UHGV virus genome: UHGV-1661176
DNA from: a virus
Length of the DNA: 10,142 nt
Direction: 5' to 3' (one strand)
Part shown: positions 3,846 through 10,142 of the stretch, piece by piece
How the letters are laid out: every line of letters begins with the position of its first letter
How positions within the stretch are numbered: position 1 is the stretch's first letter
Notes under the pieces: model-generated
Databases searched by the model: none
What the model saw: the letters and a program-made list of their open reading frames with translations, nothing else
What the model was told of the DNA's origin: nothing
Made by a program: the position numbers and the translations under genes

Positions 3846-5337
3846 GCTGGCTTTCGGTGTCGCGCTGATACTGTCGTTCAGTTCCGGCACTGTTGCCTCC
3901 TTTGTCGTTGACGGGGTCAGTATCAAAGACCAGCCCCAGTCTGCTGTTTTCATCAATTTCAGCCTTGCGGCGACGTTTGACCTCATCCGGATTGCGCCCA
4001 CCAGCACGCACCCAGTCAGATTCTGTCGCTGCACCACCCCGGATCTGAATTCTCCAGGCTTCAGCTTCCTTAACCGGGTCGATCCACGGCATCACCGGAC
4101 CGGAATACGTCGCGTTATATAGCGTTTTCATCTCCACATCCGCCGGAATTTTCAGCAGACCTGCCGCAACCACCATATTCAGCCATGTCCGGTACACCGG
4201 GCGGGTTACCGCGCCAATAAAACAGTCCTGCAGGATCAGGTAACCATCCGTGGACTCGACCAACTCCTGCCGCTGGGCGCTGTAGGTGCCGTTATAGTTA
4301 CGCGCCGCACTGGAAAAACTCAGACGACTGCCTGCTGCCACTGCACGCAACTGGCCGTTGCGGAAAGTTTCAAGGTTGGGATTGGGACGGTCAGATTTGA
4401 CCATGCCGATATCCTCGCCCTTGCGCAAATCGTCATAAATAATACCCGGGGTGATATGGACTTCCCGCTCGGTCTCTTTGCTCCCCGGATCTTCATAGTC
4501 CTGTCCGTCACCTTTACGGATATACAGTCCCAGCGCCGCAGCAATACGCGCCGCTGTCAGTTCCGCATCCTCATACTCCTTAAGGGCACTGATCCGCATC
4601 AGCACCCCCGATAACATGGATGAGCCTCGCGTCTGATGCAGACGACGAGTGAACTTCAGGTGGATCATTTTTCCGGCAGCGATTTCTTTCGTATCACTCT
4701 GCCGGCCGCTGACCGGATAATTTTTATAAACCAGATATTTTTTCGGTCTTCCCCACTCATCAAGAAAAACCCCCTGATTCAGTCCGGCGGATTCATCAGT
4801 GCGCATGGGAACAAAATCCGGCTCCATCGCCTCAAGCCAGAATGGCACTCCCGCCGTCCGTTCCAGACCGTTTCCCGCACCACTGACCATCTGCGCAAAC
4901 ACTTCACCATCCCGCAGCCAGGTCCGCAGCAGTAAACGTTCAAGCACAGGACGGGTATACTGCCCTGTCACATCCGGACTCACGGACCATTCAGCCCACA
5001 AACGGCGGATATCCGCAGCCAGCTCAGCCGCCATTTCCCCGTTTTTTCGTAATGGCTGAGGCTCCACAATAATTCCCCTGGCACCAATCACCCGCTCTTC
5101 CAGCTTGTCAAACACACCAATCACCAGGTCATGATTGATATCCAGAAAACGGGCCTGCTCCCGCAGGGAAACCGCACCGTATTTACTGAGCTGATCAGCA
5201 GAGCGATTTTCCCGCCGGGCTTTATGTGTCCGGGTCGGTTTCACCGCCTCATAGGCCATGATTAACGCCCTTGAACGCAGTCTGGCTGCTTTCCACCCGG
5301 GGGAAAACACGCCGATCACATCATCAATAATTGCCAT
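3835..5337 (-). CDS. Phage portal protein (lambda-family-like)
   Basis: 500-aa ORF between the gpW-like gene and the protease/capsid gene, the conserved portal position. ATG at 5337 is preceded by GAGG and overlaps the upstream stop as TAATG. Size and position are typical for portals; family assignment is from memory of lambda-family portals. Confidence 0.85.
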   Translation of the reverse strand: MAIIDDVIGVFSPGWKAARLRSRALIMAYEAVKPTRTHKARRENRSADQLSKYGAVSLREQARFLDINHDLVIGVFDKLEERVIGARGIIVEPQPLRKNGEMAAELAADIRRLWAEWSVSPDVTGQYTRPVLERLLLRTWLRDGEVFAQMVSGAGNGLERTAGVPFWLEAMEPDFVPMRTDESAGLNQGVFLDEWGRPKKYLVYKNYPVSGRQSDTKEIAAGKMIHLKFTRRLHQTRGSSMLSGVLMRISALKEYEDAELTAARIAAALGLYIRKGDGQDYEDPGSKETEREVHITPGIIYDDLRKGEDIGMVKSDRPNPNLETFRNGQLRAVAAGSRLSFSSAARNYNGTYSAQRQELVESTDGYLILQDCFIGAVTRPVYRTWLNMVVAAGLLKIPADVEMKTLYNATYSGPVMPWIDPVKEAEAWRIQIRGGAATESDWVRAGGRNPDEVKRRRKAEIDENSRLGLVFDTDPVNDKGGNSAGTERQYQRDTESQHEE

Positions 5338-5573
5338 TAAAACCTCGCCAGTTTAAATCCCGGTTTTCCCCGCCTGCGGCTCACCATCGCGGCAAGCCTG
5401 CGTTCCCACTCCTGACGTCCGGCGCGGATCTGAGAAAGGCTTTCCAGCGTCAGTTGCTGCCCGTTGAAGGTGACAGACTTTCCCTCCAGTACGGCCATTT
5501 CCGCTTCACGGTACCGCTGTATCATTTCTCTGGCTTCTTCTGTGCTCACAACCAGCCTCCTGATGTTATCCAT
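5337..5573 (-). CDS. W: gpW-like head completion / head-tail joining protein
   Basis: 78-aa ORF between terminase large subunit and portal, as in lambda (A-W-B). The C-terminal part (GKSVTFNGQQLTLESL...RRRGKPGFKL) resembles remembered lambda gpW (...KRVATVQKDGRRVEF...QRRRGPAGFYV). The start at 5573 overlaps the terminase 3' end by 28 nt; an internal ATG at 5525 is an alternative. Confidence 0.7.
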   Translation of the reverse strand: MDNIRRLVVSTEEAREMIQRYREAEMAVLEGKSVTFNGQQLTLESLSQIRAGRQEWERRLAAMVSRRRGKPGFKLARF

Positions 5574-7669
5574 GGATTATCTTCCGCACGCTCCGTCCAC
5601 AGTTTTTTCTTCCGGCGACGGCGTTTTTCTGCCCCGGCCGTCAGTTCCGGGGATACCGTTTCACCAGAACGCTCCTGCGGGAAGACGAGCCACGTTTCCC
5701 GCTGTGCCCAGTCCGGTGCGGAGGGCCAGCGGATCTTTTCGTAACCATGCAGAACGGCAAGCGCATCCGCATAAACCAGCAGGTCAAACGCTTCGTTAGC
5801 GCCCCTGCCCGGTTTTCGCCATTTTCCGTCACTGCCGCGCTCTTCATAGGTCAGCTCATCGTAAAACCACCGCCCCAGCCAGTCGGGAAAGTGGATATAG
5901 TTCGGCCCTGGTGTGTCACGCCACAGGGCATTATTTACACGATCCTTAAACGCATCCGTCTGAACCAGCCACAGCGCGACATCGCCACTGGCTCTGGCAC
6001 GGCGGGCACTTCTGCCGGTATTATCCGGGAAGGTTCGGTTAATCAGCCTGTCACGGCGAAGTCCATCCCCCTTGAACAGAAACACCCTGTTGCCCAGTCC
6101 GTCACTCCGGCAACGACGCCAGAAACGATAGGCGTTATCTGTCACCCCGGCTTCCCCTCCCGTATCCACCGCCATGGCCATCAGACGCATGCGCACATCC
6201 GGATCAGAAGCCAGCGGCCATGTTTTATGGAACACATCCGTCAGCAACAAATCCCAGTCCTCCGGATATGCCGCCGGATCAACCGGCAGACTTTCACCGT
6301 TGGGACTGCAGCGCAGTGAATGCCGGATGTTGTAGCGATCAACAATCCAGCGTTCCCCCTGCTCTCCGTATCCGGTGATCTGCACAACAAAACGGCGATT
6401 TTTACCGCCCTGTACGTCAACCGTTGCCTCAATAAAACGCACACCATCCGGCACAGATCGCCGGGGAAACGGCTCGGCACGCTGTTCAAGCAGTTCACTT
6501 TTACGCTGTTCCGTGGCTGAACGGGGCAGATAGGGTCGTCCGATATCGGTGTTCACCACCGCTTTCAGGGTCTCTTCACTGCCGGTTCGCTCATACTCTT
6601 CTTCTGCCGCCAGCAGTTTAAAAATCAGTTGTTCCCAGGTCTGAAACGCCGCAGCTGGCCCCTCCATCCAAAATGACGCAATCCGGGAGTTTCGTGGCGT
6701 TCCGGTGATACTGCCGTCCGCCGCCGCCCGTTCACCTTCACGAAGCCAGATCCCCTGGTTATTCAGTTCGCGTTTCTGCTCAGGGGCAATCAGCCCGCGA
6801 CAATGCGGACACATCAGACGGGCAGCCTGACCGGCAGCCACAAAATCCGGGTTATTCCGGTATCCGGTCATGTTATCCATCACCGGCTGAAAATATTCCC
6901 CGCAGTGCGGACACGGCCAGTACCACCGGCGGCGGTCTCCCCGGTTATACAGTGACAGGATCCCCGTTGTTGGCGGTGCCTCATGTGCGCCACCACAACG
7001 CCATTTGGTATCGGTGATATCCCGCCCCGGTGAACTCTCGACCAGGGTCATCCCCGAGGACATAAAGGTGGTGGTACGCTTTGAGGCCAGCGTGAAGGCA
7101 TCCCCTTCCCCGTCCACGTTTTCAGGGAAACGGTCATAATCCGTCAGCGCCACACGACGGTAATCCGAAGAGGAAAAGACGGTGATCGACGGCCAGCCAA
7201 TCTTCAGGAAGGAGCCGTCAAGAAACATTTTATCGTGGACGTTGTTGTCATTACGGGAAGGACTGAGGCGCTTGCTGACCTCCGGACTGTGGCGAAACGT
7301 CCTGGAAAGACGCGTTCTGGAATGCTCACGCGCCTTCGTCTCAGTCATCTGCACCACCAGCATATCCGCCGGATCACAGATGATGCCGTACACAATCCAG
7401 CCATCAATCAGCCCTTCGGTTTTCCCGGTTCGCGCAGGTCCCACAAACACCACCGCGTCATATTCACGGGCTGATAATGTATTAATGGGATCAATCATAT
7501 AGGGCGTCAGCGATGACTCCCACGGACCGGAAGTATTGGCTCCCCGTGGAACCCGCATATAACGCCTGATGGCTTCCGCTACTGGTAACCGGCTGGGTGG
7601 GCGAAACAGCGAGGCCACTTCGCGCCAGATATCGGATGCGCGGCTATGGCTCTCGTTCACCTGATTCAC
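5546..7669 (-). CDS. terL: Terminase large subunit (lambda gpA family)
   Basis: 707-aa ORF. It shares the N-terminal SLFRP motif with lambda gpA at a similar distance from the start, carries a P-loop-like GPARTGKT, and has a Cys cluster CPHCGEYF...CPHCRG resembling lambda's CPHCGEE...C.H..C. The first codon is GTG at 7669..7667, overlapping the small-subunit stop as GTGA. The first in-frame ATG lies after the conserved SLFRP motif, so the GTG start is likely real. Confidence 0.9.
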   Translation of the reverse strand: MNQVNESHSRASDIWREVASLFRPPSRLPVAEAIRRYMRVPRGANTSGPWESSLTPYMIDPINTLSAREYDAVVFVGPARTGKTEGLIDGWIVYGIICDPADMLVVQMTETKAREHSRTRLSRTFRHSPEVSKRLSPSRNDNNVHDKMFLDGSFLKIGWPSITVFSSSDYRRVALTDYDRFPENVDGEGDAFTLASKRTTTFMSSGMTLVESSPGRDITDTKWRCGGAHEAPPTTGILSLYNRGDRRRWYWPCPHCGEYFQPVMDNMTGYRNNPDFVAAGQAARLMCPHCRGLIAPEQKRELNNQGIWLREGERAAADGSITGTPRNSRIASFWMEGPAAAFQTWEQLIFKLLAAEEEYERTGSEETLKAVVNTDIGRPYLPRSATEQRKSELLEQRAEPFPRRSVPDGVRFIEATVDVQGGKNRRFVVQITGYGEQGERWIVDRYNIRHSLRCSPNGESLPVDPAAYPEDWDLLLTDVFHKTWPLASDPDVRMRLMAMAVDTGGEAGVTDNAYRFWRRCRSDGLGNRVFLFKGDGLRRDRLINRTFPDNTGRSARRARASGDVALWLVQTDAFKDRVNNALWRDTPGPNYIHFPDWLGRWFYDELTYEERGSDGKWRKPGRGANEAFDLLVYADALAVLHGYEKIRWPSAPDWAQRETWLVFPQERSGETVSPELTAGAEKRRRRKKKLWTERAEDNPWITSGGWL

Positions 7670-8142
7670 ATATCGGCCTCATCACAACAGTCAATGACTG
7701 CCTTTTCCAGTGTGTCGCGGATCTCATCAACCACAATCTGTACTTCATTCAGTTGTGATGCGGTCCACCCCCTGTCCCTCTCCAGCCGGTCAGGCCAGGT
7801 TTCCAGTACCTGAACTATCGCTTTCACCACGACAGAAAAGGACCGCCTGACATCACTGACTGGCACAAGCTGAACAGTTTCATGCTGAAATTTAAGACGC
7901 TCGCGCTCGGACTGATACCATGCCTTACGAGCGTGAGGATCCATATCCTCATCTTCGGAAGATGGTGGTTTTTCCAGCAACGAAGTTATCAAATCCGTCA
8001 GGAGATACAGTTTTTTCTTTTCATTACTGCCTGGTGCAAGAGGAACATCCGCCATTCTGGCGGCAACAGTCTGCCGGTGCAGACCTGAAAGGGCTGCCAG
8101 TTGATTAATATTTAACTTCATATTTTTCAGCTCGCCGTCCAT
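7666..8142 (-). CDS. terS: Terminase small subunit (Nu1-like DNA-recognition subunit)
   Basis: 158-aa ORF immediately upstream of and overlapping the large subunit. ATG at 8142 is preceded by GGAGGG. The N-terminus (MKLNINQLAALSGLHRQTVAARM) looks like a helix-turn-helix, as in Nu1-type small subunits. The AT-rich candidate cos region is directly upstream. Confidence 0.75.
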   Translation of the reverse strand: MDGELKNMKLNINQLAALSGLHRQTVAARMADVPLAPGSNEKKKLYLLTDLITSLLEKPPSSEDEDMDPHARKAWYQSERERLKFQHETVQLVPVSDVRRSFSVVVKAIVQVLETWPDRLERDRGWTASQLNEVQIVVDEIRDTLEKAVIDCCDEADM

Positions 8143-8159
8143 TTACATCCCTCCACATA

Positions 8160-8350
8160 AACCGCAGAACAGAAGTGACTCTGTTTTTTTGTAAAGAAAT
8201 GCCGCCATATAAAGATGTCGAACAAAAAACAACCACAATCATCATCTTTTTAATACTAACAGCATTAAAAACAACAAGTTACCATCATGATGATGATGAC
8301 GATAAAATCACAAAAATGCGCCTTTTTCCGCGCCCGCCCGCCCCGTGTTC
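8160..8350. other. Candidate cos site: GC-only cosN-like core (about 8328-8346) plus an AT-rich cosB-like region with ATCATC/GATGAT repeats
   Basis: Read on the minus strand, 8346..8311 is ACGGGGCGGGCGGGCGCGGAAAAAGGCGCATTTTTG, which resembles the lambda cos junction as I recall it (ACG|GGGCGGCGACCTCGCGGGTTTTCGCTATTTATG). It lies ~190 bp upstream of the small terminase start, the same geometry as lambda cosN-cosB-Nu1. The region between it and terS is strongly AT-rich and holds a 10-bp palindrome CATCATGATG (8283-8292) and ATCATCATC (8239-8247). Confidence 0.4.
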
Positions 8351-8670
8351 AGGCCCACCCCACCAGGAGGACCCGCAAAAACGATAATGGTTATCATTTG
8401 CAACAAAATCCAGTTTCTTCCACCATCGCACCGGACTGGCGACTATGAGGGGACAACACCGCGCTCCGTTAACGCGGTAAACCCCGGTGTGTATCGTTTT
8501 TGATTATCCCCGCACACTCGCGCAGAAGGAATTCCCCGTCGGGCTACGGTCATGGTTAATGCGGAAATACAGCGACGATACAGCGCATGATGTGTCAGGC
8601 TTGAATACCTTTATCCGTTAAAAGGGATATCAGTTAAGTTATCCCGTGTAGGGTATAAGCCATTATCAAA

Positions 8671-8696
8671 GCCACTCTGTAGGGAGTGGCTTTTGT
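8671..8696 (+). terminator. Plus-strand stem-loop followed by TTTTGT; possible terminator, or one half of a bidirectional terminator
   Basis: GCCACTC-TGTAGG-GAGTGGC forms a 7-bp stem (8671-8690), followed by TTTTGT. No plus-strand gene was identified upstream, so its function is uncertain. Confidence 0.3.
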
Positions 8697-8702
8697 AATG
8701 GC

Positions 8703-8730
8703 AATAAAAAAGCCCCGCGAATGCGAGGCT
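8703..8730 (-). terminator. Intrinsic terminator on the minus strand, downstream of the lysis cassette
   Basis: The minus-strand RNA would read AGCCUCGC-AUUC-GCGGGGCU (8-bp GC-rich stem with one G-U pair) followed by UUUUUUAUU. It lies ~170 nt after the Rz stop. Confidence 0.55.
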
Positions 8731-8903
8731 AAATCCAGGTATTTTTAATGACTGGCTCTTATCTCAACGCAGCCCCTTACCGCGCGCCAGATGCTCAATA
8801 TCAAGCATCAGCAATGAGATGTTTAACCATGATTCACTCCAGAAGTGAGCACCACCCTGTCTACAGAGCCAGATGTGAAGGATGATGAGTAAAATTATCG
8901 CTA

Positions 8904-9371
8904 TCATCGAAGGCATTGCGTCCTGATGTATTCCTGAAGCGTTCTCAGTGCTGTTTGGTCGCGGATAATTCCGTCCCGGATACCGAGAACGTTTCGTCCA
9001 GCAACTGGAGAGAGTTCGACGGTGGCATCATTGCCCATGCCGGAGGCGCTGGAGGTTTCGTCTGAGGATGGCACAGGGCATTTTCCTTTGACGAACACCC
9101 GACCACCATTATCAAGCTTGCGCCGAAGAGCATCATTTTTAGCTTTCGCATCAGCTAACTCCTTCGTGTATTTAGCATCGAGTGCATCAGCAGCACGCTG
9201 GCGCTGCTGCATGTCAGTAATGGTGGCGGTCGCCTGCTTCAGCTCACTGACTTTTTTATCACGCTGTTCTTTATAGGCGATGGCGTTATCACGGTAATGA
9301 TTAACCGCCCATGACTGGCAGACGATGATGCAGATAACCAGAGCGGAGATAATCGCGGTTACTCTGCTCAT
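8904..9371 (-). CDS. Rz: Spanin inner-membrane subunit Rz (i-spanin)
   Basis: The product [37 protein letters not shown]... matches remembered lambda Rz almost residue for residue at the N-terminus. ATG at 9371 overlaps the endolysin stop as ATGA, the same junction sequence (ATGAGCAGAGT) as lambda R/Rz. The GTG start at 9383 in the ORF track is rejected. Confidence 0.9.
8945..9151 (-). CDS. Rz1: Spanin outer-membrane lipoprotein Rz1 (o-spanin), nested in the +1 frame of Rz
   Basis: 68-aa ORF wholly inside Rz in another frame. ATG at 9151 is preceded by AAGGAG at 7 nt. N-terminus [21 protein letters not shown] has a lipobox (VVGC), followed by a Pro-rich KPPAPPAW motif, matching lambda Rz1 (MLKLKMML...VVGCTS...KPPPPPAW) from memory. 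Confidence 0.85.
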
Positions 9372-9865
9372 TGTTGCCCCCACAAACAGACTTCACGCTC
9401 AATCTCGCGGCGAGTCATCAGCCCTTTCCATTGCTTACCGCCAGCGTATGTCCAGCGCCGTAGCTGATCACATGCGCCTTTGATATCGCCCTGGTTTATT
9501 TTGCGAAGAAGCGTCGATGTTCTGAAATTGCCAGCGCCCACGTTGTAAACGAACGAGTAAAGAGCGCCGCGCGTTGTTTCCGGTATATCGACTTTGATGT
9601 ACGGGTTAATTTGTCTGGCGACCGTGGCAAGGTCTTTATTCAGGAGGGCTTTGCATTCTGCTTCGGTATACGTTTTACCGGGAATGATGTCTTTTCCGGT
9701 GTGTCCGTGACATACAGTCCATACGCCAACGATATCTTTGTATGGTATGTAGCTGACACCTTCCAGACCATCGTTACCACCTGGACCAGTGATGAGCACA
9801 GACGCTATGGCAACAGCCCCACCACCAATAGCAGCTGCAACAGCCTTGCGTAATGACGGCGACAT
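9368..9865 (-). CDS. R: SAR endolysin (T4-lysozyme-like muramidase with an N-terminal signal-anchor-release domain, phage 21 R21 type)
   Basis: 165-aa ORF with an ATG start overlapping the holin stop as TAATG. The N-terminal weakly hydrophobic Gly/Ala-rich segment ([20 protein letters not shown]) is typical of a SAR domain. The catalytic triad spacing E35-D44-T50 ([18 protein letters not shown]) matches R21. From memory the sequence is almost identical to phage 21 R. Confidence 0.9.
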
Positions 9866-10080
9866 TATTCACCTCTCGCAGCCTTACGCTTATCTTCTTT
9901 AATCTTGAAATAAAGATTTGTCAGATACGTCAGCAGGCCAAACAGCAGACTTCCCAGCACACCTATTGCCACCCACTGGGACGGAGAGACTTTGTCCAGC
10001 AGCTGCAGTAACCAGTATCCCGTCCCCACCGCTGACGTGGTGTATGACACACCTGTTGTGATTTTTTCCATCTGGTACAT
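9865..10080 (-). CDS. S: Pinholin (phage 21 S21 type, class II holin) with a dual-start motif
   Basis: 71 codons from ATG at 10080, preceded by GGGAGA: [71 protein letters not shown]. It has two transmembrane segments (the first SAR-like and Gly/Ser/Thr-rich) and a charged C-terminus, and closely resembles S21 from memory. Met1 and Met4 give the two starts. The GTG start at 10137 in the ORF track is rejected because it would add an unlikely Cys-rich extension. Confidence 0.85.
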
Positions 10081-10142
10081 ACCCCGTCTCCCGCAATCCG
10101 GAAGCTCACAACAATAAAAAAGACCACCGGCACACACCGATG

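Follow-up and report, generated by a model that had tools for sequence, protein, structure and literature searches.

A conserved structured RNA element predicted between the lysis and packaging genes of lambdoid phages

Introduction

The slot between Rz and the packaging genes holds the moron bor in phage lambda and the moron pid in P22. Both are protein genes on the strand opposite to the late operon with a promoter and terminator of their own, and pid has been described as having a weak promoter, a long 5' untranslated region and its own terminator (PMC8835761). We analyzed the same slot in the UHGV virus genome UHGV-1661176 (10,142 nt, the whole of which we call the window), where an earlier reading made from the sequence alone had seen convergent terminators in a spacer free of long open reading frames (ORFs) and had suggested an unannotated small RNA or micro-ORF transcribed from the plus strand. 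We find that this spacer carries a sharply bounded, conserved, non-coding module of 180 nt at 8409..8588 (the core), which we favor reading as a structured RNA in the sense of the late operon, the minus strand. The expectation of an unannotated element therefore holds for a structured non-coding one, while the proposed strand was wrong and the plus-strand ORF is broken.

The lambda segment between bor and lambdap78 (46868-47032) is a true homologue of the core, with 80% identity over 117 nt and a shared GGAAGAAACCGGA end, which agrees with the placing of the spacer in the slot where lambda carries bor. The lambda copy and that of the DLP12 prophage of E. coli K-12, which occupies the borD-ybcV spacer, are like the window in orientation to the late operon and in position after the lysis genes, but they have the bor moron and its promoter region on one side and an antisense DUF1398 gene on the other. 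A bor-type moron encodes a ~97-aa lipoprotein on the opposite strand, whereas the window spacer has neither an ORF of at least 60 aa nor a promoter, and the bor start MKKMLLATALALLITG, present in the lambda, Stx2 II and L034 loci, does not occur in the window. The P22 locus shares only the neighborhood of a hairpin that we call hairpin A, GGTATAAGCCATTATCGAGGCCACTC, and neither the core nor the promoter region. AgvB and AsxR of enterohemorrhagic E. coli prophages (PMC4104026) are likewise short non-coding features of late regions with back-to-back hairpins; unlike that convergent pair, the hairpins of the window stand in tandem in one sense.

Two further groups of phage and viral RNAs invite comparison by structure. 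T7 R1.1-type sites and the lambda sib retroregulator are, like the elements described here, irregular hairpins between cistrons of a long phage transcript, read in the operon sense. RNase III processing sites are largely double-stranded over about two helical turns and often contain an internal loop, although this shape alone is not diagnostic; two helices of ~8-10 bp with an internal loop in the core (Ha and Hb), or the ~19-bp helix of hairpin A, would resemble such a site. Unlike R1.1 and sib, with which it shares no sequence similarity, the core also has a pseudoknot, a variable hairpin and long single-stranded stretches that are invariant. In a classical H-type pseudoknot the stems are stacked, a short loop L1 spans the deep groove and a longer L3 spans the shallow groove. 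The T4 gene 32 operator and viral frameshift pseudoknots share with the 3' end of the core the crossing, stacked stems, the short L1 and the long purine- or A-rich L3, but the core has no conserved ORF running into it and no conserved start codon downstream.

Results and Discussion

Boundaries and distribution of the core

ORF calls and Pfam searches put all genes in the lysis-to-packaging part of the window on the minus strand, and the spacer is the junction through which late transcription passes on its way from the lysis cassette to cos. Similarity searches split this spacer at fixed points, showing a mosaic of conserved pieces that are inherited separately, with breakpoints clustered at ~8409, 8588, 8615 and 8702 among more than 100 distinct viral-contig sequences. 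The core is the one piece shared by all loci. Its edges are sharp, with BLAST breakpoints at 8405-8413 and 8586-8590 and unrelated flanks on both sides, and these searches, which had been proposed as a way to tell a conserved region from a passive spacer or the remnant of a deleted gene, indicate that the region is conserved and not a remnant.

The core was found in 398 of 50,697 phage records and in 3003 of 5426 complete E. coli genomes, where it occupies 7402 places (up to 10 per genome); no annotated feature lay beneath the five best E. coli matches listed. Identity within the family is 75-98%. Besides lambda and DLP12, copies occur in Stx2 II, P13374, the 933W-type Shiga toxin (Stx) phages, mEp460, and the Salmonella phages ES18 and SPN3UB, the last two at the right genome end. 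In phages of the 933W type the core is followed by bor, which is on the same strand. The module adjoins four packaging systems (DUF1441/gpA, lambda Nu1/A, the 933W type, and HNH-plus-terminase) and comes after whichever late-strand gene is last, be it Rz, a Rha- or KilA-N-type gene, or a 50-aa ORF, and its orientation relative to Rz and terminase was constant in every locus whose annotation was inspected. A scan of species-representative genomes with a 20-base core pattern returned only Escherichia and a few probable contaminants, and relaxing the viral scan brought in no copies beyond ES18-like ones from Salmonella.

Across the whole spacer, 8143-8903, the best single place in the phage and complete E. 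coli genome collections covers 81%, while the best core match is 97.2% identical. No record in those collections matched the whole spacer, so the spacer, in joining these particular Rz-side pieces to this core variant and cos flank, is a recombinant absent from them.

In some viral contigs, two core copies in the same orientation flank a ~200-aa late-strand gene between Rz and a Nu1-like gene. The copies lie at ~5030-5215 and ~5980-6170 in locus L143, ~950 bp apart in L186 and L190, and ~1785 bp apart in L163. This arrangement suggests that the module is a recombination joint or was duplicated along with inserted cargo.

Predicted fold and strand preference

Covariation analysis of the 8400-8700 region had been proposed from the sequence alone; applied to the core, it revealed compensatory changes supporting five helices, here called S1, S2, hairpin 2, Ha and Hb, with the minus strand favored. 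At the 3' end of the core, crossing helices at 8409..8443 suggest an H-type pseudoknot in the minus sense, predicted from sequence comparison: S1 pairs 8443-8439 with 8429-8425 (5 bp), L1 is 3 nt (8438-8436), S2 pairs 8435-8430 with 8414-8409 (6 bp), L2 is 0 nt and L3 is the nearly invariant, purine-rich 10-nt loop GGUGGAAGAA (8424-8415). Both crossing helices covary, and the loop lengths fit stacked stems. S2 occurs as UCCGGU/ACCGGA, UCCUGU/ACAGGA and CUCGAU/AUCGAG, and S1 as GUCGC/GCGAU, CUCGC/GCGGG, CUCGC/GCGAG, GCCGC/GCGGU and GCCAG/CUGGC, four forms being called covarying. In the late sense S1 and S2 pair in 95.4% and 97.3% of cells, with changes on both sides in three of five S1 pairs and four of six S2 pairs. 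On the plus strand, the S1 helix pairs in just 77.9% of cells and the loop order is reversed to 10, 0 and 3 nt.

The next element, hairpin 2 (8449..8485, minus strand), is the GC-rich dyad that the sequence-only reading had described as GGGG..ACCGCG-9 nt-CGCGGT..CCCC, and the dyad is indeed there. Its sequence is hypervariable while its stem is kept, as in the variants ACCGCG/CGCGGT, CCGCGC/GCGCGG (locus L067) and CAGC/GCTG (ES18). It shows compensating +1/-1 indels, is replaced in the 933W and lambda types, and has changes on both sides in three of the four inner-stem pairs in the late sense. An alternative pairing of CACCGG (8482-8487) with CCGGUG was rejected, as it is lost in the TCCTGT and ES18 types.

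The rest of the core is occupied by a long bipartite hairpin (8490..8582, minus strand), found both by RNAalifold on the minus-strand alignment and as the single-sequence minimum free energy fold. It consists of Ha (8 bp, 8490-8497 with 8575-8582) and Hb (10 bp, 8505-8514 with 8560-8569), separated by an asymmetric 5 x 7 nt internal loop, and a conserved apical part. Three compensatory double changes in Hb distinguish E. coli ATTCCCGC/GCGGGAAT from Salmonella ATCATTGC/GCGATGAT, and Ha shows the series U-A, U·G, C-G.

To compare strands, the same 40 pairs were scored in 49 distinct sequences. The minus strand exceeded the plus strand in cells paired (95.0% versus 88.0%), pairs changed on both sides (16 versus 14), cells changed on both sides (55 versus 40), further pair types (38 versus 25), covariation score (0.185 versus 0.082) and RNAalifold consensus energy (-29.9 versus -13.2 kcal/mol). 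When partners were slid by 1-3 columns, pairing fell to 38-57% of cells on the minus strand and 28-44% on the plus strand. Each pairing and covariation measure of the minus strand was reached in 0 of 500 shuffles, a control that overstates significance because the sequences are close kin and recombining. The late strand shows 170 G·U cells and 40 A·C cells (the latter would read as G·U on the other strand), a ratio of ~4:1; counted by distinct arm haplotype, the figures are 47 and 15. Unpaired columns show no such bias (22 C/T versus 23 A/G variants), so a strand-biased mutation spectrum does not explain the G·U asymmetry. Taken at the level of sequence comparison, these data favor a core that is a structured RNA read in the late-operon sense.

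Coding tests of the core

By comparison across the family, the core is non-coding. No reading frame on either strand is common to the window, lambda, 933W-type and ES18 copies, the indels in hairpin 2 are not multiples of three, and the P13374 type has a 10-nt deletion. A 58-aa plus-strand ORF called in some genomes by the Prokaryotic Genome Annotation Pipeline (PGAP) corresponds to 8445..8621, where a TAA at 8478 interrupts it in the window; lambda and 933W have truncated versions, and ES18 has none. The 44/58-aa plus-strand frame and a 36-aa minus-strand frame are likewise not conserved, and ORF C87 of Stx2 II (81 aa, late strand, 'Rz-like spanin') has no counterpart in other lineages. C87 is annotated over the core at 1295-1540 of locus L135 (Stx2 II, NC_004914), and the 58-aa hypothetical protein on the opposite strand at 2656-2832 of L005 and 2578-2754 of L006. 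Since neither frame is conserved across the family, both are probably mis-annotations. Programmed frameshifting does not apply either, because the conserved GGGUUU(A/U) heptamer is part of hairpin 2 and lies at least 40 nt upstream of the pseudoknot; no ORF feeds it.

A late-sense element of the late mRNA and its alternatives

The explanation we prefer, at a probability of roughly 55%, is that the core is a cis-acting RNA element of the late mRNA, read in the late sense. The order in that sense is Rz, the 50-aa ORF, an intrinsic terminator (terminator B), hairpin A with a smaller hairpin, the 180-nt core, cosQ and cosN. In lambda the late strand is read during lytic growth by polymerase modified by Q, and the same is presumed for the window. 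Terminator B would keep unmodified RNA polymerase from reaching the packaging genes in a lysogen; in lytic growth Q-modified polymerase would read through, so that the core would be made within the late polycistronic mRNA. There it might act in cis as a processing, stability or factor-binding signal; our first guess is a role in processing or stability. The Ha/Hb hairpin and hairpin A could, judging by shape, be an RNase III-type site, and the pseudoknot, by shielding a 3' end or recruiting a factor, could separate the fates of lysis and morphogenesis mRNA. Granting a cis-acting late-sense element, a specific role in processing or stability has at best about one chance in three. The broader proposal is that in lambdoid phages, lambda included, the core does more than fill a terminator-rich spacer: it would work as a regulatory or factor-binding RNA, either in cis as a switch or processing signal or else as a non-coding RNA processed from the late transcript. 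This proposal is tentative and falls somewhat short of even odds.

If correct, this would mean that a conserved structured RNA has gone unnoticed in the late operon of lambda, the best-studied phage, and that over half of complete E. coli genomes carry it, with copies in the Shiga-toxin prophages of O157:H7. This would offer a handle on how one 26-kb late transcript can give lysis and morphogenesis proteins in very different amounts and at very different times. Annotation of prophage-rich pathogens would gain a new RNA family, and recurrent mis-annotations over the core, namely C87 in Stx2 II and the 58-aa PGAP hypothetical protein, would be corrected.

Several observations weigh against the cis-acting element. 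Folded as a single sequence, the core has no unusual stability (z = -0.38; 75 of 200 shuffles did as well or better), and the recombining, closely related sequences fall into only about three deep lineages. The plus strand is favored by Hb in ES18 and SPN3UB and by the S2 variants TTCGGT/ACCGGA and TCCTGT/ACGGGA. In lambda and DLP12, whose copies differ from the window in having hairpin 2 replaced, S1 is mismatched in the late sense. About half of the conserved nucleotides are unpaired, which a simple processing hairpin does not explain. P22 has no core, and the module is evidently dispensable for packaging, because the lambda copy lies 1.4 kb from cos. We found no expression, processing or structure-probing data for the core in the literature.

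Among other explanations, the core could be a discrete ~180-nt non-coding RNA cut from the late transcript and acting in trans, for example through binding or titration of a host or phage protein, or as a decoy for a host defense. Its sharp, gene-like boundaries and inheritance independent of its neighbors would fit such an RNA, as would the several-domain fold, the tandem duplicates in some contigs, and the many invariant unpaired nucleotides, including the GGUGGAAGAA loop and the stretch CACACCGGGGUUU. No processed species has been reported, however, and flanking processing signals were not identified in the locus. A study of lambda by Hfq RIL-seq (RNA interaction by ligation and sequencing) reported small RNAs (sRNAs) only elsewhere and did not flag the core (bioRxiv 10.1101/2024.10.31.621285), but the lambda copy is atypical and an RNA that does not bind Hfq would be missed. 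We consider a trans-acting RNA unlikely.

Less likely still is a function of the core as DNA, whether as a protein-binding site, a single-stranded DNA structure or a favored joint for homologous recombination between lysis and packaging modules. The core always sits at a module junction with recombination breakpoints at both edges, its duplicates flank inserted genes, it contains several palindromes (GGAATTCC and CCGG cores), and some helices give mixed evidence on strand. Symmetric compensatory changes in five helices together with the ~4:1 G·U bias are nevertheless expected for RNA and not for duplex DNA sites; the crossing-stem geometry suits A-form RNA, and hypervariable hairpin 2 preserves pairing rather than sequence.

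A passive spacer or 3' untranslated region, whose conservation would reflect recent spread among recombining prophages and whose covariation would reflect hitch-hiking of linked haplotypes, fits the few deep lineages, the lack of thermodynamic excess in the core and a family identity that resembles that of neighboring phage genes, but it is improbable given boundaries that stay sharp across unrelated flanks, retention of the segment in lambda, 933W-type Stx phages, mEp460 and Salmonella phages next to four packaging systems, helix-preserving double changes far in excess of slid and shuffled controls, and a strand asymmetry that is missing from unpaired columns.

Terminator B, hairpin A and the extension segment

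Upstream of the core in the late sense lie the two hairpins that had been read as a convergent, bidirectional terminator pair. The hairpin at 8711-8730 with T6 on the minus strand stands as described: it is an intrinsic terminator by sequence (terminator B, 8701..8730, minus strand), with a G+C-rich stem of 8 pairs (6 G-C), a 4-nt loop and a U-tract at 8710-8701 with the tail UUUUUAUU. It was the sole terminator-like site reported by a scan of 7900-9500, is kept in window-type loci, and contains a U·G pair in the late sense that would be C·A in the plus sense. Intra-operon terminators are known in lambdoid late operons, with a proposed role in stopping transcription that is not antiterminated (PMC8022706).

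The hairpin at 8671-8690 is also real and is the center of a longer inverted repeat, hairpin A (8659..8702, minus strand), with 19-nt arms at 8659-8677 and 8684-8702 that are 89% complementary; its look of a plus-strand terminator is confined to the window variant. We found 19 sequence variants at this one position, including the wholly different stems AGCCACTC/GAGTGGCT, GCCCA/TGGGC and GAGGCCA/TGGCCTC. In the minus sense 18 of the 19 fold into a stem of 8-9 bp at -10 to -14 kcal/mol, and the remaining one reaches -6.1. In the plus sense 15 of the 19 are weaker than -10 kcal/mol, with several at ~-2 to -3; only window-type variants are strong, while others range from ~-2 to -10 kcal/mol, and in all 16 variants outside the three window-type ones the plus-sense stem is the weaker of the two. 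The record of phage Ayreon already annotates the hairpin as a late-strand terminator. On the pattern of these variants, hairpin A is maintained in the late sense only. With both hairpins selected in the late sense, the pair is tandem and not convergent, and a plus-strand transcript is not implied.

These results bear directly on the remaining alternative, a plus-strand small RNA or micro-ORF that would start in 8400-8670, end at hairpin A and run convergent with the late operon, in the manner of the morons bor, lom and pid or of the sRNA pair at PR'. Window hairpin A does form a perfect stem with TTTTGT on the plus strand (-15.7 kcal/mol), opposite-strand morons occupy the same slot elsewhere (bor in lambda and 933W, pid in P22), PGAP calls the 58-aa plus-strand ORF in some genomes, and a few stem variants favor the plus strand. 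The stem followed by UUUUGU was not reported by the terminator scan, though, and P22-type variants have no U-tract; in most loci the core directly adjoins a late-strand gene, Rz or another, and a plus-strand terminator is missing. The region scan found no promoter-like site, the promoter region of P22 pid has no similarity to the core, the core pairs less well in the plus sense, the plus-strand ORF is broken in the window and not conserved, and the sRNAs found by Hfq RIL-seq in lambda lie elsewhere. A plus-strand transcript from 8400-8670 is thus disfavored by the lack of a plus promoter and by hairpins and a core that pair better on the minus strand, and we regard such a unit as very unlikely.

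Taken as a whole, the late-sense stretch 8590-8765 has a folding energy of -60.4 kcal/mol (z = -6.9), which none of 200 shuffles equaled. Between the core and hairpin A, the extension segment (8589..8658, minus strand) contains a small hairpin, GGGAUA/UAUCCC, pairing 8623-8628 with 8640-8645. It was found in just ~40% of core-bearing loci, with breakpoints at ~8588, 8615 and 8702, and P22 retains part of it.

A 50-aa ORF overlapping Rz

ORF calls agree that 8388-8903 has no ORF of at least 60 aa on either strand. The description of what remains as short ORFs only had missed a 50-aa ORF on the minus strand (8764..8916), the largest in the region. Its overlap with the Rz stop is 13 nt, an AGGA stands 4 nt ahead of the ATG, and the encoded peptide has a hydrophobic N-terminus. 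The ORF is annotated as a coding sequence by PGAP (WP_001139679/80), in O157:H7, O55:H7, MS1657 and other E. coli, and in phage Ayreon. Its 62 relatives comprise 61 from E. coli and one partial Enterobacter entry, named hypothetical or partial 'lysis protein'. All 28 copies align without gaps, and 12 of 13 distinct sequences are open, the other having an internal stop. Variable sites fall 7/2/10 by codon position (by hand, chi-square ~5.2, p ~0.08), a substitution pattern that weakly suggests coding. A Pfam search with the 50-aa sequence gave no match, and neither of the region's peptides was present in the supplementary data of the Sakai small-ORF ribosome-profiling paper. The product is possibly a membrane protein, and its translation is probably coupled to that of Rz. 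Among the micro-ORFs of the region, we judge that annotation favors this one alone.

Promoters, known RNAs and earlier reports

The absence of a sigma-70 promoter, already suspected, was borne out by a scan of 7900-9500: no consensus promoter lies inside the region, and the two matches found lie outside it and do not exceed shuffle expectation. Other motifs were considered and rejected. A late-strand -10 element, (G/A)ATAAT at 8503-8508, has no usable -35 or extended -10, and a sigma-E-like GGAAYTY...TCAAA has a 25-nt spacer, which is too long; neither is held across the family. The Chi-like GATGGTGG departs from Chi at one position and is not conserved; among sigma-54 and boxA motifs looked for by eye none holds across the family. 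In lambda (locus L134, 1400-1425) and DLP12 (locus L141, 2440-2465), a PhoP-box-like direct repeat, TGTTTAGGGTTTGTTTA, lies on the minus strand between the core and the start of bor or borD, so that the bor promoter would lie outside the core, on its downstream side. We take borD to be under PhoP regulation.

Searching the whole window against Rfam 15 at E <= 1 gave three sub-threshold matches and no family at its gathering score. The STnc560 match scored 22.7 bits against a gathering score of 55 with an alignment that rests on two hairpins only, and the alignments to AbsR28 and STnc560 both rest on terminator hairpins. None of the Hfq-dependent prophage sRNAs AgvB, AsxR, Esr41, STnc100, IsrK, Sok and STnc560 reached its gathering score in the window. 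AgvB and AsxR (RF02702 and RF02703, which do not match the window) are located after PR' and before the lysis genes, the Pas sRNAs beside holin, Q or esterase genes, and svsR at cI; in lambda, PreS/LPR1 lies between ea10 and ral, and LPR2 and 6S at PR'. A search for transfer RNA and transfer-messenger RNA genes found none.

A 3'-end map of K-12 lists a bicyclomycin-sensitive 3' end at NC_000913.3 579345 (+), antisense to ybcV, and nothing inside the DLP12 core copy (PMC7815308, supplementary file 2). The listed end is Rho-dependent and lies ~170 nt downstream of the DLP12 core in the late sense, so even a defective prophage has some late-sense transcription across the region. The PdhR site near ybcV lies in the ybcV-ybcW spacer, not in the core. 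Searches of the literature on lambda bor, ybcV and lambdoid structured RNAs turned up nothing on the core segment, which could still correspond to an unnamed candidate in large phage RNA screens (PMC10690425). The core RNA element therefore appears to be undescribed so far.

Flanking genes and cos

On the minus strand, the lysis cassette comprises a P21-type holin (9865..10137), a lysozyme (9368..9865) and the Rz spanin gene (8904..9383; Pfam Phage_lysis PF03245, E = 2.6e-28), the final lysis gene in the late sense. Beyond the spacer, also on the minus strand, are a DUF1441 protein in the small-terminase position (7666..8142) and a gpA-type large terminase (5546..7669) in which gpA ATPase and nuclease domains were found.

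The candidate cos proposed from the sequence alone remains plausible as a lambda-type site at 8332-8374, with cleavage predicted from sequence. A cosN-like 12-nt cohesive-end sequence, GGGCGGGCGGGC, was located at 8332..8343 on the minus strand by homology, using aligned lambda-type cos flanks of related loci; its lambda counterpart we take to be GGGCGGCGACCT. The cosQ-like heptamer GGGTCCT lies 24 nt upstream at 8368..8374 on the same strand, and window sequence ...ATGATAACCATTATCGTTTTTGCGGGTCCT aligns to lambda 48451-48479, which ends in GGGTCCT. Spacing between the heptamer and GGGCGGGCGGGC is lambda-like, and both precede the gpA-type terminase gene in the late sense.

A perfect 11-nt complement, CAAAAACGATA/TATCGTTTTTG, links the cosQ-proximal flank (8376-8386) with the most conserved stretch of the core (8492-8502), where it overlaps helix Ha. 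It is confined to the cos-flank variant of the window, and for that reason it is probably chance or an alternative pairing.

The stretch from the cosN-like sequence to the DUF1441 start, 8143-8331, is AT-rich and contains imperfect palindromes rich in ATCATC/GATGAT, with arms at 8239-8260 and 8278-8299 and at 8278-8288 and 8290-8300. These may be candidate cosB-like binding sites for terminase or integration host factor. The sole plus-strand promoter-like match, 8279-8308, also lies in this stretch. Within Rz, out of frame on the minus strand, a 68-aa ORF at 8945-9151 occupies the position expected for the Rz1 (o-spanin) gene.

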